A stretch of DNA of 64,000 bases from an uncultured bacterium (GCA_965372535.1 CBDVCR010000001.1:11290-75289); one strand, 5' to 3'; numbered from the stretch's first letter, positions 5,392 through 58,945 are shown. Numbers and translations: made by a program. Notes: generated by a model from the sequence alone, not told the origin.

Positions 5392-5408
5392 TGTAAAGAA
5401 TGCCGACA
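5392..5408 (-). promoter_or_regulatory. candidate enhancer-binding-protein site (TGT-N11-ACA)
   Basis: The minus strand reads TGTCGGCATTCTTTACA, the same motif as 5535-5551 in the opposite orientation. Confidence 0.3.
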
Positions 5409-5534
5409 GGGGAGCGGGAAGGTCTTTCAGCTCTCCGTTGGCCGGTTTTTCGCCTGGCGGCCGCAAGGCCCTTTTTTTCCCGGGCAATCTCTCCCGGAGG
5501 AGCGCCCGCCGCGGGGAGAGGACTTGCAGCCTTG

Positions 5535-5551
5535 TGTCGGAGAAGTTTACG
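5535..5551 (+). promoter_or_regulatory. candidate enhancer-binding-protein site (TGT-N11-ACG)
   Basis: TGTCGGAGAAGTTTACG, about 50 bp upstream of the plus-strand sigma-54 promoter. Confidence 0.3.
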
Positions 5552-5600
5552 GCAGGGAGGATGCTTCAAAAAATGCCAATAAAAACGGCGCATTGGATGC

Positions 5601-5616
5601 TGGCATTGGTGTTGCT
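5601..5616 (+). promoter_or_regulatory. sigma-54 (-24/-12) promoter for the PEP-CTERM protein gene
   Basis: TGGCAT-tggtg-TTGCT, about 57 nt upstream of the ATG at 5673. Confidence 0.65.
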
Positions 5617-5672
5617 ATGTCTTGTGCGGAATTCAAATTTGATTGATTAACAACTCAAGAAAGGAGGCTGTC

Positions 5673-6347
5673 ATGAAAAAGGAAAGGTTCTTAATCGGTT
5701 TGCTGGTCATGGCGCTGATGCTTGGCCTGGGCGCGGCTGCATATGCGGTGCCCTCCCTCGGCGTCGGCACGGGTGATTTCAACTGCACGGGGGCAACGGA
5801 ATACTGGGATTGCTTCAGCGGCAATCTCGGGGGCCACGGTTTTGCGCTTCCGGCTTCCGGCGTGACAGACGGCATCACGCCGTTTACAAACATTGGTGGA
5901 GCCAACATCTGGCTCCTTGCGGAGCCGGGCATTGACCCTGTTTCGTTTGCCGCCGGAGGTACGACGTATCTTTTCGATACCGTGTTTTCGCCCGGCGTCG
6001 CTTTCGGTTCCTACCAAACGCCATATGAAGGGGCAAACCTCGGGGAGGTGGACGGCGACTGGTCCGCACTTCCCTCCCCCTTTAATCCCGCGACCTTCTA
6101 TGGCCTGCCCGGGACCCTTGATTACAGTGGAGACGCCGCTGGCAAGTGGGTCTTCCTGGTCGCCGATGATAACGGCATAGGCGGGTTGCAGGGCAATGGC
6201 ATGCCGGGCAAGCACGACTCCTTCTCCCCGAAGACCACCGGCGCGGTCGGCGTGCCCGAGCCCTCGACGCTTTCGATGGCGGTTGTCGGCGGGATTATCC
6301 TCATCGTCGGGATAATCGCAAGGAGGCGGGCGTACGGGGCGGCGTAA
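5673..6347 (+). CDS. PEP-CTERM sorting-domain secreted protein (exosortase substrate)
   Basis: The ATG follows an AAGGAGG RBS and there is a signal peptide. The C-terminus VPEPSTLSMAVVGGIILIVGIIARRR has the PEP motif, a transmembrane helix and a basic tail. Confidence 0.85.
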   Translation: MKKERFLIGLLVMALMLGLGAAAYAVPSLGVGTGDFNCTGATEYWDCFSGNLGGHGFALPASGVTDGITPFTNIGGANIWLLAEPGIDPVSFAAGGTTYLFDTVFSPGVAFGSYQTPYEGANLGEVDGDWSALPSPFNPATFYGLPGTLDYSGDAAGKWVFLVADDNGIGGLQGNGMPGKHDSFSPKTTGAVGVPEPSTLSMAVVGGIILIVGIIARRRAYGAA

Positions 6348-37606: not shown

Positions 37607-37727
37607 AGAAAGAGCTGCCGGTCCAAAACAGTCAGTTAATCAAAATATCCTTAACCCTATAAAGGTCACTTCATGAAAAAGTCTTTTTTGGCATGTGCAA
37701 TGCCGGATAAACAAAGAGGTGACGAAC

Positions 37728-37913: not shown

Positions 37914-37958
37914 ACAGTGCCCATGTTGCACAATGCGGCAAGACCGCATGAGGCCACT

Positions 37959-39131: not shown

Positions 39132-39323
39132 AAAGTCTATAAGGGGCCGGTTATCAAATTTGTTATTCGGATTACATCGAAACATGGTACTGTTTGAAAA
39201 AAAATCTTTTAAGACAAGCCGTTTTTGTTGAATGTACGGATCTTCAAGAAGCCCCCTCGGGACACCTGAAAAAGGCAAGTTCATCGTGTTGCTTTTAAAT
39301 CTTTTAGAGAAAGGAAAAAACAA

Positions 39324-39734
39324 ATGACCGGACTGATAGATGAGTTAAAAAGAGAAAATTCTCTTATTTTCGAAACCCTCAAGGACATCAAGAAACTTGG
39401 CGTCAGAACAAAAGAGGGGCAGGCTAAACTGCTGTCAGCCAGAGCAGGGTTGCTTGCGCACCTGAAAAGGGAGGACGAAGAGGTTTACCCCGCCCTCAAA
39501 ATGTCCGCCGAGAAGGACGAGAGCCTGAAACGCATCATGAACCTTTTCGAGGACGACATGAAAGAGGTCTCAAGCCTCGCGAACAGTTTTTTTGAGAAAT
39601 ACCCGCAGGGCGGGGCCGGAATTGAGTTCATTACCGATTTTGGACAGCTTTTCATGGCGCTCAAGGTGAGGATAGCTCTGGAGGAAAATGTAATCTTTAC
39701 CGAGTATGTAAACGGGCAGACAAGCTGTTGTTGA
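39324..39734 (+). CDS. hemerythrin-like (HHE cation-binding) domain protein
   Basis: LLAHLKREDEEVYPAL resembles the H..EE..L.P motif, but only weakly. Confidence 0.4.
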   Translation: MTGLIDELKRENSLIFETLKDIKKLGVRTKEGQAKLLSARAGLLAHLKREDEEVYPALKMSAEKDESLKRIMNLFEDDMKEVSSLANSFFEKYPQGGAGIEFITDFGQLFMALKVRIALEENVIFTEYVNGQTSCC

Positions 39735-39773
39735 AAATATTGTGAGCCGCGCCGCCTTTACGCGACAAGCCAT

Positions 39774-40694
39774 ATGAAAACCCTTAATGCTGAAGGAATT
39801 CATCTTGAGCCGCAGTCGCGAGTTACCCCAAGGAATATTTCCTTCCTGCTGTTTAATATTATTGCCCTTATGATGTTTTATCGACCAATTCACGAGTTGT
39901 TTTCAATGTCGTTGCATAATAATCTTTACTCTCACGTGGTTCTGGTGCCGCTTGTAAGCGGGTATCTGATTTATTCGAGAAGGAAGATTATATTTGAGGA
40001 CGTGAGGTATTCATTTCCAGCGGTCGCCGTTATTTTTGCCGGAATCTGTCTGTATCTTATTTGGAAAAAATCCCCTGGAAGCGTAAATCAAAACGACGCT
40101 TATTCACTCATTTCGCTTTCTTTTGTTATATTCTGGATAGGCGGATTCATATTCCTTTACGGGATTCGAGCATTCCGGCGTGCACTGTTTCCCCTTCTAT
40201 TTCTTTTCTTTATGGCGCCGATTCCTACCCTGATGGCGGATAAAATAATCTGGGTCCTGGAGAGCGGTTCAACGGAGGTCTCTTACTGGCTGTTCGAGCT
40301 TTCGGGGATTCCTTTTGCAAGAGAAGGGTTTGTGTTTCATCTCCCCGGGCTGAGCATCGAAGTGGCCGAGCAGTGCAGCGGCATCCGTTCGAGCCTTGTG
40401 CTTTTAATGTTCGGCATTTTACTGGGCAACCTCTTCTTGAAAAGCCGGTCCGGAAGATTACTCCTGATTTTAGCGGTTTTTCCCGTAACCGTGCTGAAAA
40501 ACGCCTTGCGGATTGTGATGCTTTCAGTCCTCGGGGCGTACGTCGATATAAGGATACTAGACGGCATCCTTCACCGGCGGGGGGGAGTGCCCTTTTTCGT
40601 CATAGCGCTTTCAATGCTGGTAATATTCCTTTGGGCTTTAAGGCTATCCGAAAAAAGCTTTAACGCCAGAGGTGAGACAAAATGTTTGAAATAA
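39774..40694 (+). CDS. exosortase (XrtA/EpsH-type)
   Basis: Polytopic membrane protein with the catalytic-Cys motif AEQCSGIRS. Conserved Arg (NALRIV) and His (GILHRRGG) are also present. It lies next to prsK and prsR. Confidence 0.85.
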   Translation: MKTLNAEGIHLEPQSRVTPRNISFLLFNIIALMMFYRPIHELFSMSLHNNLYSHVVLVPLVSGYLIYSRRKIIFEDVRYSFPAVAVIFAGICLYLIWKKSPGSVNQNDAYSLISLSFVIFWIGGFIFLYGIRAFRRALFPLLFLFFMAPIPTLMADKIIWVLESGSTEVSYWLFELSGIPFAREGFVFHLPGLSIEVAEQCSGIRSSLVLLMFGILLGNLFLKSRSGRLLLILAVFPVTVLKNALRIVMLSVLGAYVDIRILDGILHRRGGVPFFVIALSMLVIFLWALRLSEKSFNARGETKCLK

Positions 40695-42751
40695 CCCTGT
40701 CGGCCATATCCTCTTTTTTTCTCCTCGCCCTTTCCTTGTTCGTGATATTGAAGAAGAGGTCGGCCCCGAACGCGTCCCTTGGCGCCGTCCTGCTTTTACT
40801 TTTGGCAATCGAGCTTATGGACAGGTTTGCCCTTGTTCTTCCGGGAGAGCCCCTTGCGTTTAAAGGGGCCGCTCTTTTTTTCGAGTCGCTACTCCCTGCT
40901 GCTTTCCTGGCCTTCAGTCTCACCTATGCGCGGCAAAGGTCGGGGAACTTCCCCTCTTTTATCTGGGTTTTTCTCATGGCGTTGGCTGTCGCCTTCCCCT
41001 TGGGCGCGCTGTTTATTCCGCTCGATGATTTCTTCTATTCCCCCGACATCCGGTCGGAAAAAACGCTGTTTCTCGGTCAAGCCGGATATTGGTTTTATAC
41101 TGGGCTAATGGTCTACTGCGTCGCATCTTTAGTAAATATAGAGGCCACTTTCGCGGCCTCCTCGGGCGAGGACAGATGGAGGATGAAATTCGAAGTCGTG
41201 GGGATAAGCGCCGTTCTGGCGGTGCTTGTATTCTATTTCAGCCAGGGACTTCTGTACAGGACCATAAACATGGACCTTTTGCCGGCAAGGTCGGGGGTAA
41301 TGATACTGGCCTTCCTTCTTATAGGATATTCGAGGGCTTTCAGGGGCAATGACGTCCGGGTCGAAGTGTCAAGATACGTTGTCCATCGGTCGTTGGCGCT
41401 TCTCGTAATAGGGATATATTTTCTCGCTCTCGGGGTAATAGGCGAGGGCATGAGGTATTTGGATGTCTCTTTTGGACGCGACCTGACTATTTTCATCGCA
41501 TTTGCCGGCGCCGCCGCAGTGCTGCTCGTTCTTTTTTCCGAAAAGCTCAGGAGAAAGGCCAGGGTGATTATCAACAAGAATTTTTATGCCCAAAAGCATG
41601 ATTACAGAAACGAGTGGCTCAGGTTCACCGGCAGGCTCTCGTCCTGTAAGACGGCCGCTGACGTACAGGGCGTTATACTTGCCACATGCAGGGAGGCCCT
41701 GGACCTCAGGGGCGCTTCCCTGTACCTTGCGGCAGGAGAAAATAAATTTCTTCTCGGGGCGAACCAGGGGATGCCGGAAGAACCGCGAGAGTTTCGGGCT
41801 TCCGATGGAATGCTCGCGTATTTTATGGACCGGGGCAGGGCTTTCAGCCCCTTTGACGGAGAGTATGTCCCTGACGAAGAGGAAGCCTCTTTTGTCCGGC
41901 GCACCGGGGCGGCGTTGACAGTGCCCTTGATTGGCAACGATAAGGTCGAAGGCCTTCTGGTGTTCGGCGAACGGTTGAGCCGGGAGGAGTTTATCTATGA
42001 GGACTATGACCTCATGAAGACGCTTGCAAGGCAAGCTGCTCTTTCAATAAAGAAATTTTCGCTTTCGGAGGAGCTTGCCGAGGCAAGGGAGATGGCGGCG
42101 GTGGCGAGGATTTCCTCGTTCGTCATCCATGACCTTAAAAACCTCGCTTCCTCGCTTTCCGTGCTTTTAGACAATGCGCAGGATTACATGGATGAGCCGG
42201 ATTTTCAGAAAGACACGCTCAAGACCATCGGAAACACGGTTGCGAGGATGAAGAGCATAATGCAGAGGCTGAAGACCATACCGCAAAAGCATTCCCTGCG
42301 CCCGCAACCAGTGGACCTGGCCCTTCTCTCAAGAGAGGCGGTGGGTGAGGTCGCAAGGGTAAAACCGGGGGCGAAGTTGGTATGCCGGGGCACGAAGGCG
42401 GCGTCATCTGTTGATGTCGAGGAGATAAGAAAAGTCGTCATGAACCTGTTGCTCAATGCGGTTGAAGCGTGCAATGGAGACGGCGTCGTAAGGGTAGGCA
42501 CCGGCCGCAGCGACGGCATGGCATATGTCCGCGTGGAGGACAGCGGGTGCGGGATTGACGATGAGTTTATGAAAAACCATTTGTTCAAGCCCTTCAGGAC
42601 GACAAAGCAAAAAGGGCTTGGCATAGGGCTCTACCAGTGCAAACAGATAGCGGAGGCGCATGGCGGCAGACTGGAGGTGGAAAGCGAGGTCGGCAGGGGT
42701 TCTGTCTTTACGGTGTATCTGCCGGCCCCGGCCTCGAGGTGCACAGTGTAA
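40682..42751 (+). CDS. prsK: PEP-CTERM system histidine kinase (PrsK-like)
   Basis: 689 aa: a multi-transmembrane N-terminal half, a GAF-like region, H-box FVIHDLKN, NLLLNAVEA, DSGCGI and GLGIGLYQ. Confidence 0.85.
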   Translation: MFEITLSAISSFFLLALSLFVILKKRSAPNASLGAVLLLLLAIELMDRFALVLPGEPLAFKGAALFFESLLPAAFLAFSLTYARQRSGNFPSFIWVFLMALAVAFPLGALFIPLDDFFYSPDIRSEKTLFLGQAGYWFYTGLMVYCVASLVNIEATFAASSGEDRWRMKFEVVGISAVLAVLVFYFSQGLLYRTINMDLLPARSGVMILAFLLIGYSRAFRGNDVRVEVSRYVVHRSLALLVIGIYFLALGVIGEGMRYLDVSFGRDLTIFIAFAGAAAVLLVLFSEKLRRKARVIINKNFYAQKHDYRNEWLRFTGRLSSCKTAADVQGVILATCREALDLRGASLYLAAGENKFLLGANQGMPEEPREFRASDGMLAYFMDRGRAFSPFDGEYVPDEEEASFVRRTGAALTVPLIGNDKVEGLLVFGERLSREEFIYEDYDLMKTLARQAALSIKKFSLSEELAEAREMAAVARISSFVIHDLKNLASSLSVLLDNAQDYMDEPDFQKDTLKTIGNTVARMKSIMQRLKTIPQKHSLRPQPVDLALLSREAVGEVARVKPGAKLVCRGTKAASSVDVEEIRKVVMNLLLNAVEACNGDGVVRVGTGRSDGMAYVRVEDSGCGIDDEFMKNHLFKPFRTTKQKGLGIGLYQCKQIAEAHGGRLEVESEVGRGSVFTVYLPAPASRCTV

Positions 42752-42818: not shown

Positions 42819-44282
42819 ATGGAAAAGCTCTTAATCATCGACGACAACGAAGATATCAGAAGGCAACTCAAGTGGGGCTTTGCGAAAGAGTACGAAACGC
42901 TTATGGCGAAAGACGCCGAAGAGGCGCTCGCCCTTTTCGGGAGGCACGGCCCGAAAGTCGTGACCCTCGACCTGGGGCTGCCGCCGCATGCGGATACGGT
43001 GGTCGAGGGGCTGCGGTGCCTTGAAAGAATTCTGGCCGAGCGGCCTTCGACGAAGATTGTCGTGATAACGGGCAACGAGGAGGGGGAAAACGCGCTCAGG
43101 GCCGTGCGGATGGGAGCATATGATTATTACCGGAAACCGATAGACCTCAAGGAGCTGAGGGTTATCGTCAAGAGGGCTTTCCACCTGCATGAGATCGAGC
43201 GGGAGAATCTCAGGCTTCACACGGCCATTGCCGAAGGGAAGCCCGCCGGGTTGGAAGGCATGCTGGGGCAATGCCCGGAGATGGAGGCTGTTTTCTCGAT
43301 TATCGGGAAGGTCGCCTCCTCCGCCGTCAACGTGCTGGTAGTCGGCGAAAGCGGTACGGGCAAGGAACTGGCGGCCAAGGCGATTCATGCCGGCAGCTTG
43401 AGGAACAGGGGTCCCTTCATGCCGATAAACTGCGGCGCCATCCCCGAGAACCTCCTTGAGTCCGAACTCTTCGGGCACGAAAGAGGCGCTTTCACCGGCG
43501 CGCACGCCAGGCTGCAGGGGAAGTTCGAGTACGCGCACGGAGGCACGCTCTTTTTTGACGAGATAGGCGAGCTGCCGGCGAACCTGCAGGTGAAGCTGCT
43601 CCGCTTTCTCCAGGAGAAGACCATCCAGCGGGTGGGGGGGAGGGAGGACATAGCCGTTGACGCGAGGATTATCGCCGCAACGAATATCGATATATCAAGA
43701 GCCATGAAGGAAGGCGCCTTCAGGGAGGACCTCTACTACAGGCTGGGCGTGATTACGATAAAACTTCCGCCGCTGAGGGAGAGGAAGGGAGATATCATGC
43801 TCCTTTCGAGCTTCTTTCTGCAGAGGGCCAACGCGGAGTTCAAAAAGAGGGTGAGGGGGTTCAGCCCCTCGTCGGTAGAGCTTCTTGAGTCTTGTCATTG
43901 GCCCGGCAACGTGAGGGAGCTTGAGAACAGGATTCAGAGGGCGGTCATTATGTCGGAGGCGACGGTCATTCAGCCCCAGGGCCTCGGGTTCATGGATACC
44001 CCCGCAAGGCAGGAGTCCGGGATCGCCGAGACGATGACCCTCCGGGAAGGGAGGGACAGGGTGGAGAAGGAAATGATAATCGCCGCCACCGAAAAATGCG
44101 AGGGCAACATAGCAAGGACAGCCGAAAGGCTCGGCGTAAGCAGGCCGACACTTTATGACCTAATGAAGAAACACGGTCTTTTCAGTATGCCGGTGCAGGG
44201 CCGGGACGGAGGGGGCCAGAGAAACGGGCCTGTCTCCGATGCGCCGCCCGGCGCGCGGAGCGGTTTACATCCCCTCCCTTAA
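42819..44282 (+). CDS. prsR: PEP-CTERM-box sigma-54-dependent response regulator (PrsR-like)
   Basis: The protein starts MEKLLIIDDNEDIRR. It has REC, AAA+ (GESGTGKE, GAFTGA) and Fis-type HTH domains. Confidence 0.9.
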   Translation: MEKLLIIDDNEDIRRQLKWGFAKEYETLMAKDAEEALALFGRHGPKVVTLDLGLPPHADTVVEGLRCLERILAERPSTKIVVITGNEEGENALRAVRMGAYDYYRKPIDLKELRVIVKRAFHLHEIERENLRLHTAIAEGKPAGLEGMLGQCPEMEAVFSIIGKVASSAVNVLVVGESGTGKELAAKAIHAGSLRNRGPFMPINCGAIPENLLESELFGHERGAFTGAHARLQGKFEYAHGGTLFFDEIGELPANLQVKLLRFLQEKTIQRVGGREDIAVDARIIAATNIDISRAMKEGAFREDLYYRLGVITIKLPPLRERKGDIMLLSSFFLQRANAEFKKRVRGFSPSSVELLESCHWPGNVRELENRIQRAVIMSEATVIQPQGLGFMDTPARQESGIAETMTLREGRDRVEKEMIIAATEKCEGNIARTAERLGVSRPTLYDLMKKHGLFSMPVQGRDGGGQRNGPVSDAPPGARSGLHPLP

Positions 44283-45017
44283 ATCCCTTTGCATGAAGTC
44301 CGGGCTCAGGCGTATGTGCCGGTTTTTCAGGACGGTGATTTCCTTGTCTCTCTGGAGCTTGTCGATTACCCTTGTCGCGGTCTCTCTCGTAAGGCCCGCC
44401 ATGTTCGCTATGTCCCTGTGGGTGAGCTTGAGGTCCAGCGTGACGCCCTCTCCCGTTTCCTTGCCGTACTCCTCAGCGAGCAGGCAAAACAGCATCTTCA
44501 ACCTCTGGGACGCGTTTTTGAAGTTCAGTATCTGTATCATGTCCCAGGAGTTGCGGAGACGGGCGCACAGTATCTGAAGCAGCCGATCGAGTATCTTGCT
44601 CTGGGAATGTATCAGGGAATAAAAATCGTTTTTGGAAATGACGGCGGTCAGGGTGTCTTCTATCGCAAGCACGGTGGCGGGGACCGTTTTGCCGTCAATC
44701 AAGGACATCTCGCCGAAGAATTCCCCTGTCCGGTGTATGGCCAGGATGGTCTCCTTCCCGTCCTCGCTTATCTGGATAACTTTCACCTTCCCGGACAGGA
44801 TAATATACATGTATTCGTTGGTGTCTTCCTCATAAAGTATCGTCTTGTTCTTACTGTACTGTTTAATCTTCAGTTTCGCGCTGATATGGAGCAGGTCCTG
44901 ATCCGTAAGCGAAGCGAAAATCTGTACTGGTTTCAGTCTGTCTATAACGTTTTTTTCTTCCACGTCTGTCCCTCTGGCAAGTCGGTTTTTACACGGTTTC
45001 CCATGTATTTTTTGCAA
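44265..45017 (-). CDS. Crp/Fnr-family transcription regulator
   Basis: cNMP-binding domain (FGEMSLIDG) plus a C-terminal HTH (RDIANMAGLTRETATRVIDKL). The start could be an internal GTG. Confidence 0.9.
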   Translation of the reverse strand: MQKIHGKPCKNRLARGTDVEEKNVIDRLKPVQIFASLTDQDLLHISAKLKIKQYSKNKTILYEEDTNEYMYIILSGKVKVIQISEDGKETILAIHRTGEFFGEMSLIDGKTVPATVLAIEDTLTAVISKNDFYSLIHSQSKILDRLLQILCARLRNSWDMIQILNFKNASQRLKMLFCLLAEEYGKETGEGVTLDLKLTHRDIANMAGLTRETATRVIDKLQRDKEITVLKNRHIRLSPDFMQRDLREGM

Positions 45018-45220
45018 GACCCGTGCCCAACGGCGAATTACCTTTAATCAGCCTGTTATACATGTTTTACGGGCCGTGGCATGTAAAGTAATTCGACACC
45101 TGTCGTTTAACGTTACACTCTCAATTAATCGAGTATTTCCCGCATCGCCCGTCTTTTGAGGCATCGTCCCTTCCCGGCTTTTCTCCGTTCGGCATCGCAT
45201 TCAGTCAATTCCCTGTAACT

Positions 45221-45345
45221 AAAAGAGCCGCCGGAGAAATCCTCTCTGGCGGCCCGGCGGACATAGGATAGCGTTTGCTGACATCCTTTAGTCCCGTCGC
45301 TCTGCGTCCCCGGGTTTCCCCAGGTTTGCTCTGAGCAGAGAACCT
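45221..45345 (-). promoter_or_regulatory. GEMM-I (cyclic-dinucleotide) riboswitch-like leader with intrinsic terminator, upstream of the crp-like gene
   Basis: The RNA reads ..CAGAGCAAACC-UGGG-GAAA-CCCG-GGGACGCAGAGC..GGAC-UAAA-GGAU..AUCC-UAU-GUCC.., then GCCGCCAGAGA..UCUCCGGCGGC-UCUUUU. This matches the Vc2 core GGCAAACC..GAAA..GGGACGCAAAGC. Confidence 0.75.
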
Positions 45346-45388: not shown

Positions 45389-45404
45389 TGTGATTCAAAT
45401 CACA
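45389..45404 (-). promoter_or_regulatory. CRP/FNR-type box TGTGATTCAAATCACA (perfect palindrome)
   Basis: TGTGA-N6-TCACA centred about 41 bp upstream of the predicted start of the riboswitch leader, with an AT-rich -10 region between them. Confidence 0.7.
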
Positions 45405-45467: not shown

Positions 45468-46583
45468 TCAGCGGGAAAGGTAGGTGCTTATTTCGGTCGA
45501 GTAGGCGCTTTCGTTGCCCTGTGTATCGTATGCCGTTACGGCGAAATAATAGTATAAGCCGGTCGGGAGGTTCCCGACGGTGTATTGCGTTACATTTGCC
45601 ACGTCAAACGATTCGGTATAGTTGCCGGTGGAAGTTCCGTAATAGAGCCTGTAGCCCGCGAGGTCATCAAGTGGAGCGCCCTCTTCGTTGGTCGTGGGCG
45701 CATCCCAGAGAAGGGTTACCGGGCGGTGGGTTTGCAAAGGACTCGTTGCGGTACAAGCCTGGATGCCTGCGGTTGATTCGTTGCCTTCCGTATCATATGA
45801 GGTAACGGTATAGCAGTATGCTGTTGCGGGGAACAACCCCGTATCGCTGTAGACGGTGGAAGTAGAGGTTCCTGTTTCAACGCCGTCTCTGTAAACCCTG
45901 TAGCCGGCGACTCCGGAACCGTCTCCGTCCGTGGAAGGATTCCACGAGAGGTCAATCCGGCTTGAGGAAACAACTTTTGTTATCAGTCCCGTTACGGCCT
46001 CCGGAGGGGTGATGTCCAACCCGGAGCCTATTGGTTCGGTGGCAACGGGGTCTGGTTCGGAGATAACGGGGGCCGGCTCGGAGCCTATTGGTTCGGTGGG
46101 AACGGGGTCTGGTTCGGCGGGAACGGGGTCTGGCTCGGCGGGAACGGGGTCTGGCTCGGCGGGAACGGGGGTCATCATTATATTAATTATGGATTCGGTT
46201 TTTTTCTCCACGTCCACGATACCGGCATAAGGCTCATATCCGTCACCGGTTGCGGTAATGGTTATGCCTTTCCCTTTTACTATATTCTTGATAGTGTATT
46301 CTCCGTTGCCGGCCGTAATGTCCATTGCTTCGCCTATCCGGACCATGACCGCTGAAAGAGCCGTCCCGTCAACATCGGTTACAATGCCGGTGACGCTGCC
46401 GAGGACCCCATAGGCATTTCCTGTCCCATTATATAGCGAACCCTCCGCGAGTCCTCCAGGGGCGTCCTTCGCAATATTTTCGGCAAAGCCGTTTCCCGCG
46501 GCATATCCGGTTATGGACAAAACGGCCACGAAAAAGACAAGAAGATGTGGGGCGCCGTGTTTCACTGAAAATGTTTTCATCAA
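45468..46583 (-). CDS. secreted surface protein: carboxypeptidase-regulatory-like domain, Pro-rich repeat linker, two FN3 domains
   Basis: Signal peptide; GIVTDVDGTALSAVMVRIG.. domain; PVPAEPD x3 linker; two FN3-like modules (..LSWNPSTD.., ..LLWDAPTTNEEG..). Confidence 0.75.
   Translation of the reverse strand: MMKTFSVKHGAPHLLVFFVAVLSITGYAAGNGFAENIAKDAPGGLAEGSLYNGTGNAYGVLGSVTGIVTDVDGTALSAVMVRIGEAMDITAGNGEYTIKNIVKGKGITITATGDGYEPYAGIVDVEKKTESIINIMMTPVPAEPDPVPAEPDPVPAEPDPVPTEPIGSEPAPVISEPDPVATEPIGSGLDITPPEAVTGLITKVVSSSRIDLSWNPSTDGDGSGVAGYRVYRDGVETGTSTSTVYSDTGLFPATAYCYTVTSYDTEGNESTAGIQACTATSPLQTHRPVTLLWDAPTTNEEGAPLDDLAGYRLYYGTSTGNYTESFDVANVTQYTVGNLPTGLYYYFAVTAYDTQGNESAYSTEISTYLSR
46024..46173. 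repeat. in-frame tandem 21-bp repeats (about 4 copies plus diverged copies)
   Basis: Units ggytcggygggaacggggtct lie at 46090, 46111, 46132 and 46153. They encode PVPAEPD on the minus strand. Confidence 0.85.
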
Positions 46584-46668: not shown

Positions 46669-46684
46669 TGTGATTTGAATCACG
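46669..46684 (-). promoter_or_regulatory. CRP/FNR-type box TGTGATTTGAATCACG
   Basis: One mismatch from the palindrome; centred about 93 bp upstream of the ATG at 46583. Confidence 0.6.
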
Positions 46685-46876: not shown

Positions 46877-48745
46877 TTACCCGCGTGCCTTCTCGTGTCT
46901 GTTCCTTTTCCGGTGCGCTATCAGGAACATGACGATGCCCGCAAGGACAATAATGCCGCCTAAGGAGGCCCTGGGAAACTTTATTCCATAGACAATCGGC
47001 GCAAGCGCCCGCCTAGTGGCGACCCTCAGCGCTTCGTGTCTTGAGATAAAGTCCGCCGCCTGCGGAGACAGCCTGTAGTAGGCGGCCACGAACGCCCTGC
47101 CCGGAAGGCTGCCAAGCAGGTATTCGTCCCTGAATTTCCTGAGCACCACTACATCGGGAGCCAGGGAGCTTCCGTAAGCGGCGGTTGCTATGAAGCATGC
47201 ATACGGGGAGGGGATTGTCGAATCCATGGAACCGGGTGGAGTCACGTCGGTGCCTGTGCCTCCCTGGTCTTGTCCCGGGTCCGCTGAAACGGTAATAACC
47301 GTCTCGCCGCTTGCCGATGCTCCGCCGTCGTCCGTAAACCGGACTTTTGCCGTGAAGGTGCCGGGGGTCTGATAGGTATGAGAGACGGGGCTTGCGGCGG
47401 TCTGGGCGTCGAAAACTCCGTTTCCGTCAAAGTCCCACTCGTACAGGACTATCTTTCCGTCGGGGTCCGAGACCACGGTGGAAAAAACCACCGTTAACGG
47501 CGCTGTTCCCGCATTGGGCGAGGTTTTGACCGAGGAGACGACCGGAGGTTCGTTCAGCGCGGAGGTTGCCGTTATCGTCACCGGAGGCGATATGGTCGAG
47601 GCCCCGCCGTTGTCCGTGATTTTCAGGCGCACGTTGCAGGCGCCTTCGTTTGAATATATATGGGACGCGCTCGATACCGCGCCCGTGTTCTCATCGAATG
47701 TGCCGTCGCCGTCAAAGTCCCACTCGAAGGCGACGACGGCGCCGTCGGGGTCCGATGCCTGTGCCGTAAAGTCCACGAGGAGGGGGACGGTCCCGGTCGC
47801 GGGGGCTGCTGAAAAAGCGGTTATCACGGGGGAGAGGTTCGATGTCGTGAAAGAGTGTTCCGCCGACATGGCCTCGTTGCCCGCTGCGTCGGCGGACCTG
47901 ACCCTGAAGACGTAGGTGGTAAAGCTCGAAAGCCCCGTAATCTCCACGGAATGCATGGTGACCGGGTCGGAAACAAGTGGGGTGATGCTCCCGTAAGCTG
48001 AGGCAAGGCCGTGTTCGACCCTGGAGGACGAGGGCTCGTCGGTCGTCCAGGAGATAATCGCCGAAGAGTCTGTAATGCTTGCGGTCTGTACCGCGGTTAT
48101 TACCGGAGGCGTCGTATCCAGCGGGTCGGACGTGGTGAAGGTATGGGTTTCCGAGACTGCCGCGTTGCCTGCGGCGTCGGCGCTCAGTACCCGGTAGTAG
48201 TACTGTGTTGAAGGCGAAAGGCCGCTTACGCCCTGGGAGTGGGTGGTGACAGGCGAAGGGTCGAGGGCGGTGGAGCTTCCGAGGGCGAGGGTTGCGCCGT
48301 ATTCCACACGGGTGTCGGAAGCCTCGTCAGTGGTCCAGTTTATGGTCGCGCTCTCGACGGTAACGTCCCCGGCGTAGACCCCGGAAATCACCGGGGCGGA
48401 GGTATCCGCGGTTGCCGGGGTCATACTGGCCTCGTTTGAGTACGCGCTTTCATTGCCCGCCGAGTCGTAAGCACTGGTCGCGAAATAGTAGGTGAGGCCG
48501 TTTGTGAGGCCGGTGACCCGGTAGGTTGTCACTTTTCCAACGTCTATGCTCGACGAATAACCGCCGCTTGCGGCGCCGTAGTACACCCTGAAGCCCGCAA
48601 GGTCGCCCAGCGCCGTGCCGTCCTCGTTAGTTGTGGGCGCGTCCCAGGCAAGGGTGGCCTCGCCAGCGAACGCGGAGGCGACTAAAACAAAGGTCAAAAA
48701 GACAATCAAACAAACTGTTGCTGTACTTTTTCCGTTTCTTTTCAA
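46877..48745 (-). CDS. large secreted FN3/PKD-repeat surface protein with a C-terminal CFIATAAYGS-type sorting-like domain
   Basis: The TTG start at 48745 follows a GGGGAGGA RBS. A signal peptide is followed by FN3 modules and two PKD-like modules (..FDGDG[TV]FD..). The tail is ACFIATAAYGS..LRKFRDEYL.. plus a transmembrane helix and HRKRNRHEKARG. Confidence 0.8.
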   Translation of the reverse strand: MKRNGKSTATVCLIVFLTFVLVASAFAGEATLAWDAPTTNEDGTALGDLAGFRVYYGAASGGYSSSIDVGKVTTYRVTGLTNGLTYYFATSAYDSAGNESAYSNEASMTPATADTSAPVISGVYAGDVTVESATINWTTDEASDTRVEYGATLALGSSTALDPSPVTTHSQGVSGLSPSTQYYYRVLSADAAGNAAVSETHTFTTSDPLDTTPPVITAVQTASITDSSAIISWTTDEPSSSRVEHGLASAYGSITPLVSDPVTMHSVEITGLSSFTTYVFRVRSADAAGNEAMSAEHSFTTSNLSPVITAFSAAPATGTVPLLVDFTAQASDPDGAVVAFEWDFDGDGTFDENTGAVSSASHIYSNEGACNVRLKITDNGGASTISPPVTITATSALNEPPVVSSVKTSPNAGTAPLTVVFSTVVSDPDGKIVLYEWDFDGNGVFDAQTAASPVSHTYQTPGTFTAKVRFTDDGGASASGETVITVSADPGQDQGGTGTDVTPPGSMDSTIPSPYACFIATAAYGSSLAPDVVVLRKFRDEYLLGSLPGRAFVAAYYRLSPQAADFISRHEALRVATRRALAPIVYGIKFPRASLGGIIVLAGIVMFLIAHRKRNRHEKARG

Positions 48746-48764
48746 GATATCCTCCCCTTTCAAC

Positions 48765-48893
48765 AAAAAAAGCCGCCAGAGAAATATCTCTGGCGGCACG
48801 GCGGGCATGGGACAGCTTATCTCCGGGCCGTCCTTTAGCCCCGTTGCTCTGCGTCCCCGGGTTTCCCCGGGTTTGCTCTGAGCAGAGAAGAAC
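48765..48893 (-). promoter_or_regulatory. GEMM-I (cyclic-dinucleotide) riboswitch-like leader with intrinsic terminator, upstream of the FN3/PKD gene
   Basis: It has the same architecture as 45221-45345, with compensatory base-pair changes. The terminator GCCGCCAGAGA..UCUCUGGCGGC-U7 ends about 20 nt before the RBS. Confidence 0.8.
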
Positions 48894-48941: not shown

Positions 48942-48957
48942 TGTAATTCAAATCACA
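48942..48957 (-). promoter_or_regulatory. CRP/FNR-type box TGTAATTCAAATCACA
   Basis: One mismatch; centred about 41 bp upstream of the predicted leader start. Confidence 0.65.
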
Positions 48958-49038: not shown

Positions 49039-51318
49039 TCAGGGAGGGGGCTGCCGGGATTTCAGGGCTTTTTCGAGGGCCTTGACGACCGAAGGGTCGT
49101 AGATTGTGCACGAGCCCTTTTTTATTTCCTGCAGTGCTTCTTTCTTTGTGAATTTTTTCCCGTACGGCCTTTCCCTCGTCATTGCCGAGAATGCGTCGAT
49201 AACGGAGATGGCCCGTGAAATGAGGGGTATTTCCTCCCCCCTCAGACCGTCCGGATAGCCCGAGCCGTCGTACCTTTCATGGTGGTGGAGTATGGCGTCC
49301 CTGGCTTTTTCGGAAAACTCAAAGTCGTCCAGCAGGGTTACGGTCGTGTACGGATGGACCCTTAGGGTGCGGGCCTCGGCGGGAGAGAGTTTGGTGCTCT
49401 TCTCAAGAATGCTTTGGTCGATAAACATAAGCCCGAGGTCGTATATCATGGAGACGTAAACCGCGAGGGCCTTTTCCCCCTCCTCGACTCCGAGGTCGTC
49501 CATGACGTCCGAGATAAGGTCAGGGAACAACTTCTTCTTTTTATGGTATCTCTTTTCGGCGTCAAGGAGGCCCTGGAAGGACGTGATGAACTGTTTGAAA
49601 TCATATTCCACGGGGCCGTCCATGGAGAACTTTTCGAAAAAATGCGAAACCCTTTCGACCACCTCGAGGGCGATATAAAGGTCGCGGACCGTGAAGGGGG
49701 ATGAGGTCCTCTTGTTGTTGAGGTTGAGCACCCCTATTGCCTTGTCCCGCAGCTTTATAGGCACTGAAATAAGGGATTTCGTGTTGTACCGCGGATTGTT
49801 CTTCCTTCCGAAACGCGGGTCGCTCTCTATGTCTTCTATGAGCAGTGGTCTGCCCTCGATGGCAACCCACCCGGAAATCCTGTCGCTGAACCGTATTCTC
49901 GTCCGCTTTATGACGTCTTCGGAAAGCCCCATGGCCCCCTTAATCGTAAGTTCCCCCGACAGGTCGTCGCTGAGCATGATGGAACAGACGTTGACGTCGA
50001 GCAGGTCCGAGATGAACTCGATGAACAGTTCCATGGCGGTGTTGACGACGGCCTCCCTTTTTTCCCTTTTTCCTTTTGGGATTGTCAGGGTGACGTGGAA
50101 TTTGTCGTTAATGTTTTGCGCTGTCATTTCCCACCTGTGAAACTCCGCCACCTTCCGGGCAAGGTAGAAGTTCAGGCCCTCCCGGGGATGGTCCGACTGG
50201 AAGATGTATCCTGTTGTGGCGAGGTAGGGCAGTATCGCCTCGGGCATCTTTCTGGGGACGACCAAATCCACGTCTATGAAATTGTTCTCGTGGATGCTCA
50301 GGTCAATTGCGTCTCCGGTCTCAAGGTGGTGGCTGAGGCCCTCCATGAGGTTCAGAAAGAACTGGGCGAGCCTGGTCTTGTCGGCAGCGATGTACGATAT
50401 GTCCTTTTTGATGTCCGTTTCGAGCCTCAGGTCCTTTTTCGCGAGCAAGGAGTTCAGCATCCTGGAGTTTACGAGCTCCTCTATGAGGTCGGCGAGGTTC
50501 ACAACCGTCTTTCTTACCGCCCTCGTTTCGTCGTCAAGCCTGAGGAAATCAAGCAGGTTTTCGACGATGGAGACAAGCTTCGTTGTCTCGTCGCCGATGA
50601 TGTCGCGATATTCCCTCTGGTCGCTCGGGGGCATGTCCCCGGTCTGCTGCAAATAGTATATGGCCCCGCTGATTGAATTGAGCGGCGTCCGGAGCTCATG
50701 AGAGACATGGGTTACGAATTCGGTTTTTACGACGTCGCTCTCGATGAGTTTCTTATTCATCTCCTCAAGCTCCGCGGCCTTCGCCTTGAGCTGTTTCATC
50801 AAAAACGCGTTTTCCAGGGCGATGGCCGCCTGGTTCGCTATGATCTTAACCAGGTCGAATTCGTCTTCCGTAAAAGCTTTCTCGTCCTTCTTGTCGTTGA
50901 TGTTGATGACGCCGAGCAGCCTGCTCTTGCTTATCAGCGGGCATGAGATGAACGATTTTGTCCTGAAACGCTCTCTTGTTTCCCCCGGGAACAGGTCGCT
51001 TTCCTCGATGTTTTCGACAAGGACGGGAACGCGGTTTTTCGCCACCATGCCGGCAATCCCCTTGCCTATCTCTGTTCTGCTGCTTCTGATTTGCGGGCCG
51101 CTAACGCCTCTTGAGACAAAGACGTACAGTTCGTCCCGCTCGCTGAGAAGCATCAGGGAGCCTTTTTCGGCGTTGGCGTAGTTCAGGGCGGACTCCAGCA
51201 TGAGGTTGGCGATGGCGCTTACGTTGTCCGTGGCGACTATGGCGCTCGTGGTTTCCTGAAGTATGCAGAACTTCTTCTCGAAAAGCTCCGGATTTTGCAT
51301 AAGGCAATTATAATTCAT
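49039..51318 (-). CDS. GAF - HisKA - degenerate HATPase - GAF - HD-GYP multidomain signalling protein (cyclic-dinucleotide phosphodiesterase candidate)
   Basis: H-box FVTHVSHELRTPLNSISG is present. The kinase ATP-lid region lacks the DxGxG and GxGxG boxes. The C-terminus has HHHERYDGSGYPDGL (HD-GYP). Confidence 0.8.
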   Translation of the reverse strand: MNYNCLMQNPELFEKKFCILQETTSAIVATDNVSAIANLMLESALNYANAEKGSLMLLSERDELYVFVSRGVSGPQIRSSRTEIGKGIAGMVAKNRVPVLVENIEESDLFPGETRERFRTKSFISCPLISKSRLLGVININDKKDEKAFTEDEFDLVKIIANQAAIALENAFLMKQLKAKAAELEEMNKKLIESDVVKTEFVTHVSHELRTPLNSISGAIYYLQQTGDMPPSDQREYRDIIGDETTKLVSIVENLLDFLRLDDETRAVRKTVVNLADLIEELVNSRMLNSLLAKKDLRLETDIKKDISYIAADKTRLAQFFLNLMEGLSHHLETGDAIDLSIHENNFIDVDLVVPRKMPEAILPYLATTGYIFQSDHPREGLNFYLARKVAEFHRWEMTAQNINDKFHVTLTIPKGKREKREAVVNTAMELFIEFISDLLDVNVCSIMLSDDLSGELTIKGAMGLSEDVIKRTRIRFSDRISGWVAIEGRPLLIEDIESDPRFGRKNNPRYNTKSLISVPIKLRDKAIGVLNLNNKRTSSPFTVRDLYIALEVVERVSHFFEKFSMDGPVEYDFKQFITSFQGLLDAEKRYHKKKKLFPDLISDVMDDLGVEEGEKALAVYVSMIYDLGLMFIDQSILEKSTKLSPAEARTLRVHPYTTVTLLDDFEFSEKARDAILHHHERYDGSGYPDGLRGEEIPLISRAISVIDAFSAMTRERPYGKKFTKKEALQEIKKGSCTIYDPSVVKALEKALKSRQPPP

Positions 51319-51809
51319 TTCGTACCACGATTTTTATATATTTATTGGGATCCAAGTAATAATTAAGCAATAATTATGCCTTTTGCGTACAACCTGTAAA
51401 AAAGAATTTTCTTTTTTTTCAAGCAGGTATGGACGGCAAGGAGGAGAGGGACGCGGCCCGCCTAATAAGTGTTAACCAGGCCGACTTTCAGTGTCGCATG
51501 TGTTTACAGCCTGGGTTCCGGAAGAGCCGGAAACATTTCGAAGGGGAGCCTTTCGAACGGACGCGTTCCAGGCTAACAACAACCCTCATGGTCTGACAGA
51601 CTCTTCATAACTGTATGCTTCTTTTTCCCTTTCAACCGGGTATGGGCATGAAACGGCACTTATAGGACAAGGGCGCGTCCCTCGATGCGGGCGCGTTGTG
51701 CGTACCGCTTCGAGTAAGTCTTCCCTTGTCGTTTAACGTCCCGTTTTATCGCGTGGACGCATTTCGGCGTGCTTGGAAAACCCCGCCTTTCGGGCCGGCA
51801 TGAGCGTTT

Positions 51810-51851: not shown

Positions 51852-52790
<939 letters not shown>

Positions 52791-57131: not shown

Positions 57132-58193
57132 TTGGCCGTGAGAATCGCGGAACTTATCCTGCGGAGAGGAAGAGGCCCTTTCGCTTTGTCTCTGCTGCTT
57201 TCGCTCCCCATTGTCTGCCTTTTTACCCTTCTCCTTGCCGTCCTCCATATCTGGGAGGACGGCACGAGGCGGCGCAACTTCGAGATGCAGCTCAGGGAGT
57301 CGGCGAGGGCCCATTTCGAGCAGGTGGTGCTTACCGGGCTGTGGAACGCGCAGCACGGGGGCGTGTATGTAATGCTTGCCGAAGCAGGTTCACGCTCAAG
57401 CATGAGGGTCTCCCCGGAGGACACGGTAAATATCGGCGGCAAGCTGTACACAAAGCTCAACCCGGCGTATATCACCAGGCAGTTGTCCGAGATGGCAGCG
57501 GATAAAGGGTCTTTTATCAGGTTCCGTATATCGAGCCTTAACCCCGCTAACCCTTCCAACAGGCCCGGCAAGTGGGAGGCCCGGATGCTTCGCGCATTCG
57601 AAAACGGCGAGACGGAGGGGTACGGGATAATCGAGCAGGAGGGGTTGGAGTATTTCAGGTATATGTCCAGGCTGGTGGCAACCGAGGGATGCCTTGGCTG
57701 CCACTCGGAGCAGGGCCTGAAAGCCGGGGACATCATCGGCGGCGTAAGCGTAATCATCCCCGCGGGCCTGAACAGGGCGCTTCAGAGCGACATGAGAAGA
57801 CGGAGCATAATTGTCTTCAGCGTTATATGGGGCGCTACCGCCCTGTTAATCCTGGGCATTACATGGGTCTTGGCAAGGAGGCTCAGCCGGGGGGTCAAGA
57901 GCGAGGTGGAAGGCGAAAAACTCAAGAGCGCCGTAAGCATGGCAGGTGCGGCGGCCCACGAGCTCAGGCAGCCGCTGTCCATCATAATGGGGTTTTCCGA
58001 GCTTCTTAAGGACAAGGCGACAAACGGGGAGAACACCGACAGGGAGACCGAAATCATCATAAGCCAGTGCCGACGCATGAACGAAATCATCTCAAGGATG
58101 CTCAACGTCACCTCTTACAGGACTAAGTCCTACGGCGGCTATACCGAGATATTCGACTTCGGCCTGGAACCTGAAGAATCCTCCCGGAAATAA
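57132..58193 (+). CDS. DUF3365 (haem-binding, CxxCH) sensor domain fused to a HisKA-type dimerisation/phosphoacceptor segment, with no ATPase domain
   Basis: It has ..NPANPSNRPGKWE.., ..EGCLGCHSEQG..GGVSVIIP, a transmembrane helix and H-box AAHELRQPLSII. The protein ends about 70 aa after the H-box. The start is TTG 57132 or GTG 57138. Confidence 0.7.
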   Translation: MAVRIAELILRRGRGPFALSLLLSLPIVCLFTLLLAVLHIWEDGTRRRNFEMQLRESARAHFEQVVLTGLWNAQHGGVYVMLAEAGSRSSMRVSPEDTVNIGGKLYTKLNPAYITRQLSEMAADKGSFIRFRISSLNPANPSNRPGKWEARMLRAFENGETEGYGIIEQEGLEYFRYMSRLVATEGCLGCHSEQGLKAGDIIGGVSVIIPAGLNRALQSDMRRRSIIVFSVIWGATALLILGITWVLARRLSRGVKSEVEGEKLKSAVSMAGAAAHELRQPLSIIMGFSELLKDKATNGENTDRETEIIISQCRRMNEIISRMLNVTSYRTKSYGGYTEIFDFGLEPEESSRK

Positions 58194-58758: not shown

Positions 58759-58774
58759 TGGCACGCAACTTGTA
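58759..58774 (+). promoter_or_regulatory. possible sigma-54 promoter (TGGCAC-gcaac-TTGT)
   Basis: The -24 element is perfect, but -12 is TGT rather than TGC. It ends about 12 nt before the riboswitch-like leader. Confidence 0.35.
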
Positions 58775-58786
58775 TGGAAGAGAGAG

Positions 58787-58918
58787 CCACCGAAAAGAGC
58801 AAAGCCGGGGTAACCGGGCGGCGCAAAGCCACCTGCCCTGAGTTAATCGAAGGGTAGAGGGGGTTGCCGAAGTGGAAAGAGCAGCATCTTCGGCCCGTCT
58901 TTTCGGAGGCGGGTTTTT
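58787..58918 (+). promoter_or_regulatory. GEMM-I (cyclic-dinucleotide) riboswitch-like leader with terminator, upstream of the transglutaminase-core gene
   Basis: The RNA reads CCACCGAAAAGAGCAAAGCCGGG-GUAA-CCGGGC-GGCGCAAAGCCACCUGCCCU..AGGGUAGAGGGGGUUGCCGAAGUGG. It aligns along its length with Vc2 (..GGGACGCAAAGCC..GGUAGCGGGGUUACCGAUGG). The hairpin CCCGUCU..GGAGGCGGG-U5 follows. Confidence 0.8.
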
Positions 58919-58945
58919 ATGTTTACAACATTCGGGGGAGGTACG

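Follow-up and report, generated by a model that had tools for sequence, protein, structure and literature searches.

Does a protein that joins a histidine kinase core to an HD-GYP domain, and that is encoded beside riboswitch-controlled genes, destroy the cyclic dinucleotide that the riboswitches bind, or does it read it? The question is raised by a gene on the minus strand (49039-51318) of a 64,000-nucleotide stretch of DNA from an uncultured bacterium (GCA_965372535.1 CBDVCR010000001.1:11290-75289), referred to here in its full length as the window. A preliminary description of this DNA had seen in the gene a kinase-dead histidine kinase core fused to a complete HD-GYP phosphodiesterase that would remove the ligand of the neighboring riboswitches. 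Our analyses, which are computational throughout, suggest instead that the protein is probably a sensor of a cyclic dinucleotide that modulates a two-component system, and is not simply a destroyer of the riboswitch ligand. The most likely target is the response regulator PrsR, which is encoded nearby together with the histidine kinase PrsK.

The open reading frame (ORF) is present as claimed and encodes 759 residues, and the strings SHELRTPLN, DLVVPRKMP, REGLNFYLARK and HHHERYDGSGYPDGL, quoted in the preliminary description, were all found at the places given for them. Pfam searches matched two GAF domains (E 1.5e-31), HisKA (residues 198 to 263, E 3.4e-16) and HD_5 (residues 621 to 744, E 2.8e-29), the last over profile positions 44 to 170 only. 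The AlphaFold2 model of the protein has a mean predicted local distance difference test score (pLDDT) of 79 and a predicted template modeling score (pTM) of 0.70. From the N terminus, the protein consists of a GAF domain, a dimerization and histidine phosphotransfer (DHp) domain, the remnant of a catalytic and ATP-binding (CA) domain, a second GAF domain and a variant HD-GYP domain, which we term YD-GYP (Table 1). It has 120 full-length homologs of 53 to 96% identity, spread over Geobacter, Geotalea, Desulfuromonadales and Nitrospirota, with named relatives in the Nitrospirota (60%) and in Geobacter/Geotalea (54 to 56%) being the nearest. Family counts out of 121 refer to a single alignment of the window protein with these homologs. 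In an NCBIfam scan, no model covered the GAF/HisKA/YD-GYP fusion family.

Pfam gave no HATPase_c match in the 759-residue protein, even with the cutoff relaxed to E ≤ 10. The NCBIfam whole-kinase models CreC and VanS nevertheless align through residues 172 to 414, and thus the segment that follows the DHp domain is homologous to a CA domain. Indeed, residues 270 to 414 form a confident α/β sandwich in the AlphaFold2 model (pLDDT about 80 to 90), and Foldseek matched the DHp domain plus CA remnant to the entire cytoplasmic core of HK853 (~235 of 237 residues). The Mg-binding asparagine of the N box is Gly327 in 119 of 121 homologs; the G1 box, DxGxG, reads [P/S]-R-[R/K]-[L/I/M]-P across the family (LVVPRKMP in the window copy); and the glycines of the G2 box, GxGxG, are replaced by Lys, Glu or Arg inside a conserved KLYLARK motif (REGLNF in the window copy). 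As a positive control, distant full-length relatives (P0134, P0140, P0147, P0185 and P0203) carry canonical NxxxN, DxGxG and GxGLGL boxes. Sister-clade control proteins scored 64 to 113 bits on HATPase_c, and family members P0121, P0125 and P0131 gave no HATPase_c match at all in the same test. Subthreshold echoes of HATPase_c were seen in 15 of 41 family members, the best with an E value of 6e-5. Judged from these alignments, the CA domain is one that has retained its fold and from which every ATP- and Mg-binding motif is gone. Because these motifs are lost, the protein is predicted to be unable to autophosphorylate, and an ATP-site-dead kinase core is supported. The claim of a kinase-dead core with an intact H box thus extends to all 121 sequences, with the sister clades as positive control, and it stands after the profile searches that had been set beforehand as its test, which found no intact HATPase_c.

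Within the kinase half, conservation is highest in the DHp domain. The sequence SHELRTPLNSI is almost invariant, with His207 present in 117 of 121 sequences and Glu208 and Thr/Ser211 in 119 each, and the H box of the window protein is identical to that of HK853. With HK853-type DHp helices as a guide, the putative response-regulator-specificity positions N214, S215 and G218 vary little or not at all. In HisKA kinases, H-E-x-x-T/N is established as the motif for phosphatase activity. The PDB matches to the kinase half include the HK853 T264A structure 6AZR, and searches by structure and by sequence also matched the DHp-CA structures of RetS and DivL. His207 is replaced by Gln in four close homologs (P0068, P0079, P0087 and P0089) with other motifs intact, and by Tyr in two more distant members (P0126 and P0129), again with the rest intact; these natural variants suggest that phosphorylation of the histidine is not universally required.

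A conserved phosphoacceptor in a core that lacks an ATP site could also mark a histidine phosphotransfer or phosphate-sink protein of the ChpT, Spo0B or RetS type, an explanation close to what the preliminary description proposed. His207 would then receive its phosphate in trans, from PrsK or in a back-transfer from PrsR~P, and its phosphorylation would control the C-terminal domain. The retention of His207 within an HK853-identical H box is what such a protein should show, a CA-like fold without ATP motifs has parallels in ChpT and Spo0B, RetS and DivL recur among the matches, and the prsK and prsR genes are adjacent. However, the natural His-to-Gln and His-to-Tyr variants are otherwise intact, the DHp domain of PrsK is too divergent for the Pfam HisKA model, making heterodimerization less likely, and none of the nine loci has an extra receiver or Hpt domain. 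We therefore regard phosphotransfer as unlikely to be the function of the family.

A second HisKA protein without a CA domain is encoded elsewhere in the window (57132-58193, plus strand). This 353-residue membrane protein combines a Tll0287-like heme-type sensor (CLGCH) with a HisKA DHp domain (AAAHELRQPLS) and ends right after the latter; no CA domain was found in any frame between this DHp domain and the next riboswitch.

The C-terminal half is altered at its presumed catalytic site. The top phmmer matches in the PDB are V-cGAP3 (5z7c, E 1.5e-28) and PmGH (4mcw, E 3e-17), and both alignments set MIYDLGL against LLHDIGK. Mapped onto PmGH (literature numbering; chain numbering is the literature number + 6), H221 corresponds to Y626, D222 to D627 and K225 to L630; the metal ligands H250, H276/H277 and D305 correspond to H655, H679/H680 and D708; D308 corresponds to S711, and R314/K317 to R717/G720. 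These differences are properties of the family. The HD dyad of a competent phosphodiesterase is Tyr626-Asp627 in all 121 members, and the conserved lysine of HDxGK is Leu630 in 119. Position 711, equivalent to D308, is Cys in 110 members and Cys or Ser family-wide, with Ser in the window copy. The first-histidine motif DxYTxGHS (D183, E185/Y, H189) is replaced by A-E-K-K-Y-H-K-K; the family alignment has no conserved acidic residue at the D183-equivalent position, and His592 (95 of 121) meets H189 only via a three-residue gap in the V-cGAP3 alignment. Thus the domain is not the complete HD-GYP domain that had been described. In contrast to these positions, the metal ligands are retained: H655, H679, H680 and E681 (the HHE motif), GYP and D708 are each present in 121 of 121. 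The RxY motif is also kept (R717 in 111, Y719 in 121). Residue 720 is Arg in 76, Lys in 14 and Gly in 29 members (Arg or Lys in 90 of 121), so that the window copy, RPYG, carries the minority residue. None of the 121 sequences has Gln or Asn at this position, which would complete Rxx(Q/N), the signature of HD-GYPs specific for cGAMP (3',3'-cyclic GMP-AMP) (Wright et al.), and we rejected identification as a cGAMP-specific phosphodiesterase on this ground. The variant [H/Y]D-x-G-[L/M] is also found in sister clades whose kinases are intact, which indicates that the HD-GYP alteration is older than the decay of the CA domain.

Mutational and structural data on PmGH give these substitutions a meaning. 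Bellini et al. found hydrolysis by PmGH to be abolished by each of H189A, H221A, D183A, K225A and D308A, whereas Ala variants of GYP, R314 and K317 do not abolish activity (PMC4159591). H221 is part of the "H-site," the proposed nucleophile is a hydroxide bridging the M-H iron pair, and the complex of PmGH with cyclic di-GMP (c-di-GMP) (4MDZ) holds the G-site iron only (PMC4159591). The YD-GYP domain keeps the G-site ligands D627, H655, H679 and H680, plus D708, GYP and RxY. The family thus appears to have kept the elements seen holding c-di-GMP in the PmGH crystal and to have changed those needed for cleavage, and we consider it fairly likely that hydrolysis has been lost or severely reduced. 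Precedents for such a state exist. Pseudomonas aeruginosa PA2572 (YN-GYP), which has the same His-to-Tyr change, has undetectable activity and is yet a regulator (PMC3411652), and the inactive HD-GYPs HnoD and ECA3548 act via protein-protein contacts (Galperin and Chou).

Could the protein nevertheless be an active, GAF-regulated cyclic dinucleotide phosphodiesterase with an unusual metal center, Tyr-ligated and bi- or mononuclear, that lowers local c-di-GMP or cGAMP? In that case, which comes near the earlier view of the gene, the dead kinase core would be mainly a dimerization and signal-transmission module. The HD_5 match is strong, the closest PDB sequence is itself a cGAMP phosphodiesterase, and D627, H655, H679, H680, E681, D708 and GYP are invariant, whereas pure receptors often lose such ligands. 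Moreover, some HD-GYPs without canonical residues are still active, and a cyclase gene often lies directly upstream of the family gene, as expected of a synthase/hydrolase pair. Weighing more heavily, however, are the family-wide substitutions at three positions (H221, K225 and D308) where a single Ala change abolishes PmGH activity, the missing D183/H189 motif, the absence of Rxx(Q/N), and the undetectable activity of PA2572 with the same His-to-Tyr change; a role in dimerization alone would also leave the extreme conservation of the H box and docking residues unexplained. An active phosphodiesterase is, in our estimation, somewhat unlikely, and the claim that the protein is an enzyme removing the riboswitch ligand is weakened to the same effect.

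Two degenerate catalytic sites in one protein might also be read as the mark of a decaying, nonfunctional relic of a hybrid kinase/phosphodiesterase. The pattern of conservation led us to reject this: full-length homologs persist in several lineages, the replacement residues are themselves invariant (Y626, L630, G327 and P359), synteny and promoter are conserved, and the predicted fold is confident. A pseudogene is scarcely credible here.

The genomic neighborhood points to a partner for the DHp domain. In the window, genes for an exosortase, PrsK and PrsR (Table 1) come after a low-GC polysaccharide cluster. Using the window proteins as tblastn queries, we compared eight other lineages (L001, L004, L005, L085, L086, L087, L088 and L089). 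In seven of the eight, full-length PrsR orthologs (59 to 69% identity) and PrsK orthologs (43 to 63% identity) adjoin the family gene, lying within ~3 kb of it and in convergent orientation. The conserved partner of the family gene is PrsK/PrsR plus the exosortase. In Geobacter, Geotalea and a Desulfuromonadales metagenome-assembled genome, the second gene upstream of the family gene codes for a HAMP-GGDEF protein. In L001 and L085, the motif of the upstream cyclase is GGDDF, with Ser replacing the guanine-specifying Asp, which is the signature of GSU1937; a GGEEF cyclase gene is upstream in L087. No GGDEF gene was found in the 64-kb window itself.

GSU1937 contributes to cGAMP synthesis (Hammond and Bond laboratories; PMC8835794), and the PrsR and PrsK of Geobacter sulfurreducens are GSU1940 and GSU1941 (PMC7726332; Haft Table 1). 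From synteny with these two genes, the G. sulfurreducens ortholog of the family gene should be GSU1939 or thereabouts, a probable assignment that would place it at a distance of two genes from GSU1937, the cGAMP synthase. In the literature, GSU1939 appears in transcriptome lists only, as a "sensor histidine kinase" or a presumed c-di-GMP-degrading gene, and it has been counted among the c-di-GMP-degrading genes (PMC11283642). That entry is likely a misannotation, given the residues that the family has replaced.

The low-GC block (~26000-40000) has a GC content of 0.34 to 0.47, compared to ~0.57 elsewhere, and encodes a Wzx-type flippase and a WecB epimerase; it is possibly a horizontally exchanged exopolysaccharide cassette. 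On the other side of the family gene, just upstream of its control region, lies an IS110-family transposase remnant (51908-52552, minus strand; Transposase_20 and a partial DEDD_Tnp_IS110). In a 96%-identical metagenomic relative (L003), synteny breaks at this remnant, and a baeRF-family gene takes its place.

The control region of the family gene carries a σ54-type −24/−12 element, which is overlapped by a σ70-like match (51373-51400). Counterparts stand upstream of orthologs in Geotalea (TGGCATTTATATTGC), L004 (AGGTATAATTATTGC), L086 (AGGCACAATTATTGC), L085 (GGCACTTTTGTTGT), L005 (GGCATTGTTACTGC) and L089. In a formal test, the element was present upstream in 6 of 7 loci; shuffles averaged 0.06 loci, and none of 20000 reached 6. 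A generic σ54 consensus with two mismatches allowed was not enriched window-wide (66 matches versus 53 ± 7). The element is therefore meaningful by virtue of its position and cross-species conservation and not of window-wide enrichment.

Anchoring on the −24/−12 element revealed a 17-nt motif, TGTMAA-N6-CRACA, located 70 to 120 nt further upstream, here termed the upstream activator site (UAS). Nine UAS matches with one mismatch or less occur in the window, where 2.6 are expected; none of 100 shuffles reached nine. Of 89 loci in total, exact copies were found in 8 of the 9 orthologous and 4 of the 80 unrelated ones, counts that come from the same loci in which the pattern was derived post hoc. 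In the orthologous loci, these exact copies immediately precede the family gene; L087 differs in that the copy stands upstream of the GGDEF gene before it. The ugd-prsK-prsR operon likewise has a UAS upstream in L001, L085 and L089. In these Geobacter/Geotalea loci (~15100-16000), it occupies the intergenic region between that operon and a divergent gene for a protein of ~720 to 740 residues with no Pfam match.

The arrangement recalls a known control region. According to Haft et al. (2006), the control region of PEP-CTERM genes consists of a 17-nt "motif 1" with the 3' end TTTACA, sometimes repeated and followed after a spacer by a σ54 motif, and motif 1 is predicted to be the PrsR site. The reverse complement of the UAS, TGTYG-N6-TTKACA, fits motif 1, as compared by text description only. 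The same succession of UAS and −24/−12 element that is found upstream of the family gene also stands ahead of a genuine PEP-CTERM gene elsewhere in the window (Table 1), the product of which (5673-6347) has a signal peptide and the C terminus VPEPST-transmembrane segment-RRR of a typical PEP-CTERM protein. Because the pair recurs there, the family gene can be said to carry the signature of the PrsR (σ54, PEP-CTERM/exosortase) regulon.

What, then, of the riboswitches? Their adjacency is real: 152 nt separate the stop codon of the 759-residue ORF from a GEMM-I aptamer downstream of it on the same strand, and three further GEMM-I aptamers are found in the window (the second in Table 1, a third at 58788-58871 and a fourth at 63633-63708), with RF01051 scores of 50.8 to 63.7 bits. 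The overlap of the first aptamer with an intrinsic terminator is an arrangement consistent with a ligand-ON expression platform. We equate model position 11 with nucleotide 20 of the Vc2 numbering, a mapping checked against A47 and C92; the aptamers at 48887, 45340 and 58788 have A at this position, and that at 63633 has G. A20, the nucleotide of the cGAMP-sensing riboswitches of Geobacter, is the hallmark of cGAMP-sensing GEMM-Ib, and A20G reverses selectivity (PMC6140456; PMC6456294), although A20 alone can bind bispecifically, as in Vc2 G20A (PMC6140456). The three A20 aptamers thus combine the GEMM-I fold with the GEMM-Ib nucleotide, and their ligand is a predicted one. The fn3/PKD gene behind the first aptamer likely starts at TTG 48745. 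The CFI-box-CTERM domain of its product is a different sorting signal from that of the PEP-CTERM proteins of the adjoining exosortase.

A Crp-type layer accompanies these switches. Palindromes of the form TGTGA-N6-TCACA number five in the window, compared to 0.7 expected; one lies at 34736-34751, and the three minus-strand units that separate the family gene from prsR have one each ahead of them, two of these units being also GEMM-I-gated. The last of these units encodes a Crp/Fnr-family regulator, orthologs of which adjoin the family gene in L004, L087 and L088. This suggests an autoregulated Crp-type regulon layered over the dinucleotide riboswitches. The control region of the Crp/Fnr gene, downstream of the riboswitch, also contains a UAS pair (45082-45098 and 45101-45117) and a σ54-like element (TGGGCACGGGTCTTGCA, 45013-45029), and transcription of the gene could run through the riboswitch or bypass it. 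Likewise, a near-consensus σ54 element (TGGCACGCAACTTGT, 58759-58773) ends ~15 nt before the third aptamer, also of the A20 type, which precedes a gene for a 1003-residue transglutaminase-core protein (58919-61930), as in a σ54 promoter feeding a riboswitch. The fourth aptamer, on the plus strand, has G20 as in the c-di-GMP type, and its downstream gene exits the window; A20 and G20 switches thus occur within 20 kb of each other.

GEMM-I flanks the family gene only in the window and in L003. It is absent near the gene in L001, L004, L085, L086, L087 and L089 and lies kilobases off in L005 and L088. Of the local signaling circuit that had been proposed, the adjacency therefore holds, but it is confined to this lineage; the conserved neighbors and the cis-signature point away from a circuit centered on riboswitches and toward PrsK/PrsR and the σ54 PEP-CTERM regulon.

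On balance, the explanation that we tentatively prefer, as the most plausible of several and still short of probable, is that of a dinucleotide-sensing pseudo-histidine kinase within the PrsK/PrsR regulon that feeds back on PrsR. The conserved response regulator docked by the DHp domain would most likely be PrsR, as adjacency and shared cis-elements suggest, and the domain would act on it as a phosphatase or phosphate sink, not as a kinase, thereby closing a feedback loop on the regulon that transcribes the gene. YD-GYP together with the second GAF domain would serve mainly as a sensor of a cyclic dinucleotide (c-di-GMP and/or cGAMP) that sets DHp output, and the first GAF domain would supply a second input, from a small ligand. 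The net effect would be dinucleotide-dependent feedback on PEP-CTERM/exosortase expression. In the lineage of the window, a three-gene island of surface-protein and Crp-family genes with CRP boxes and GEMM-Ib switches has been inserted between the gene and prsR, and because of this insertion a single pool of dinucleotide would reach the RNA switches and the protein in parallel.

Several observations weigh against this reading. For the kinase half, the 97% conservation of His207 exceeds what a pure phosphatase would need. In addition, many HisKA phosphatase reactions are stimulated by the nucleotide-bound CA domain, and such stimulation would be impossible in an ATP-site-dead protein. The contact with PrsR is drawn from adjacency and shared cis-elements; in the Nitrospirota locus L004, PrsK/PrsR is not adjacent and another σ54 regulator is present, L087 and L088 have no detectable −24/−12 element directly upstream of the family gene, and the UAS counts carry the post hoc origin of the pattern noted above. 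For the YD-GYP domain, Tyr can ligate Fe, and the five invariant ligands plus the invariant Tyr626 make it probable that a metal center is retained, so that residual or different hydrolytic activity may persist. Consistent with this, a Lysobacter RpfG without the H189 equivalent is active, and an RxxS HD-GYP variant still hydrolyzes c-di-GMP (Galperin and Chou).

A more specific version of the preferred explanation makes the family a cyclic dinucleotide receptor, with cGAMP as the ligand in Geobacter, where the neighboring Hypr GGDDF enzyme GSU1937 would supply it, that turns binding at a hydrolysis-dead YD-GYP domain into dephosphorylation of PrsR or siphoning of its phosphate. We judge this quite unlikely, yet if true, it would be the first protein effector of Hypr-cGAMP signaling and the signal input that is missing for the PEP-CTERM/exosortase regulon. 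Two questions meet in this family: the signal for PrsK/PrsR, the stimulus of which Haft et al. (2006) called obscure, and the protein readers of cGAMP in bacteria of the Geobacter type, whose known effectors are all riboswitches. The family thereby offers a testable wiring between dinucleotide signaling and matrix and surface-protein export in electroactive and sediment bacteria, and it cautions that a protein labeled "HD-GYP c-di-GMP phosphodiesterase" or "histidine kinase," such as GSU1939, may be neither.

Table 1. Positions of the family gene, its domains and control elements, and neighboring features in the 64,000-nt window
Feature	Position	Strand	Evidence or remark
Gene for 759-residue GAF/DHp/CA-remnant/GAF/YD-GYP protein	49039..51318	-	ORF, domains, 120 full-length homologs
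GAF domain 1, residues 32-170	50809..51225	-	Pfam GAF/GAF_2; folded in AlphaFold2 model
DHp/HisKA, residues 198-265	50524..50727	-	H box SHELRTPLN at 50677-50703; His207; H-E-x-x-T motif
Degenerate CA (HATPase_c) remnant, residues 266-416	50071..50523	-	No HATPase_c match; fold kept
GAF domain 2, residues 425-566	49621..50046	-	Pfam
Variant HD-GYP (YD-GYP) domain, residues 576-745	49084..49593	-	Alignment to 5z7c and 4mcw; family conservation
YD-GYP landmarks	YDLGL 49429-49443; H655; HHE 49276-49284; GYP 49252-49260; D708; RPYG 49159-49170	-	
σ54-type −24/−12 element AAGGCATAATTATTGCT	51366..51382	-	~49 nt 5' of ATG; conserved upstream in orthologs
17-nt UAS TGTAAACACATGCGACA (TGTMAA-N6-CRACA)	51492..51508	-	Enrichment and ortholog conservation
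CRP-type palindrome TGTAATTCAAATCACA upstream of riboswitch/PKD unit	48942..48957		
GEMM-I aptamer, A at G20 equivalent (GEMM-Ib-like)	48789..48887	-	Rfam RF01051, 63.7 bits (gathering 35)
Intrinsic terminator, 11-bp stem + T7, overlapping aptamer 3' end	48762..48797	-	
Riboswitch-controlled fn3/PKD surface protein, CFI-box-CTERM sorting domain	46877..48745	-	Pfam; NF041770, 98.8 bits
fn3/CarboxypepD_reg surface protein	45468..46583	-	CRP-type box 46669-46684
Second GEMM-I aptamer (A20 type)	45245..45340	-	Perfect CRP box 45389-45404 ahead of it
Crp/Fnr-family regulator gene	44265..45017	-	Probable GTG start 44963
PrsR, PEP-CTERM-box σ54 response regulator	42819..44282	+	TIGR02915, 646 bits (cutoff 502.6)
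PrsK, XrtA/PEP-CTERM system histidine kinase	40682..42751	+	TIGR02916, 532 bits (cutoff 300)
Exosortase (EpsH family)	39774..40694	+	TIGR02602, 139.7 bits (cutoff 105.55)
Reference PrsR-regulon unit	5392..6347	+	UAS 5392-5408 and 5535-5551; −24/−12 5601-5616; PEP-CTERM gene 5673-6347

There are known pseudo-histidine kinases (DivL, RetS, ChpT/Spo0B) and, separately, known HD-GYPs without activity (PA2572, HnoD), and the literature that we searched describes no conserved fusion of a pseudokinase with an altered HD-GYP domain in a PEP-CTERM regulon and, in Geobacter, near a cGAMP synthase. Like RetS, DivL, ChpT and Spo0B, the family combines a DHp domain with a CA-like fold, which in those proteins modulates another two-component pathway without autokinase activity, and DivL carries Tyr in place of His, as do P0126 and P0129. 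None of the four has an HD-GYP-type domain, however, and the family differs from them in its intact H-E-x-x-T motif and in the replacement of the ATP-lid glycines by conserved charged residues. SgmT (with a degenerate GGDEF receptor), RavS and CckA similarly place two-component signaling for extracellular matrix and lifestyle under a dinucleotide-binding module, but they are active kinases whose receptor module is a GGDEF, PAS or CA domain and not HD-GYP.

Among HD-GYP proteins, Persephonella marina PmGH (4MCW/4MDZ) aligns with the second GAF domain plus C-terminal domain over ~340 of 361 residues, and the equivalents of its D222, H250, H276, H277, D305, GYP and R314 are kept; the family departs from it in H221 to Tyr, K225 to Leu, D308 to Cys/Ser, the lack of the D183/E185/H189 motif and the fusion to a pseudokinase. 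P. aeruginosa PA2572, a receiver-YN-GYP protein, shares the His-to-Tyr change in the HD dyad and is regulatory without detectable phosphodiesterase activity, acting, like HnoD and ECA3548, through protein-protein interactions. In contrast to PA2572, the family keeps the dyad Asp (YD, not YN) and HHE, and its input comes from a DHp/CA remnant and GAF domains instead of a receiver.

On the regulatory side stands the PrsK/PrsR/PrsT system (Haft et al. 2006), with which the family is linked by adjacency to prsR/prsK, a motif-1-like UAS and a σ54 motif. The family protein is not among the described components, Haft et al. make no mention of HD-GYP or GAF, and the family occurs in only part of the lineages that have PrsKR (Geobacterales-like and some Nitrospirota-like). 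Finally, the cGAMP-specific HD-GYPs (PmxA, Bd2325 and Gmet_3476; V-cGAP1-3) are related to the family through the HD-GYP fold, with V-cGAP3 as the top PDB match, whereas the family is without their Rxx(Q/N), HD histidine and lysine, and the Geobacter candidate for a cGAMP phosphodiesterase is a different gene, Gmet_3476 (Galperin and Chou). What the family shares with them is the cGAMP context, namely organisms with GEMM-Ib-type riboswitches and, in Geobacter, an adjacent Hypr GGDDF gene.

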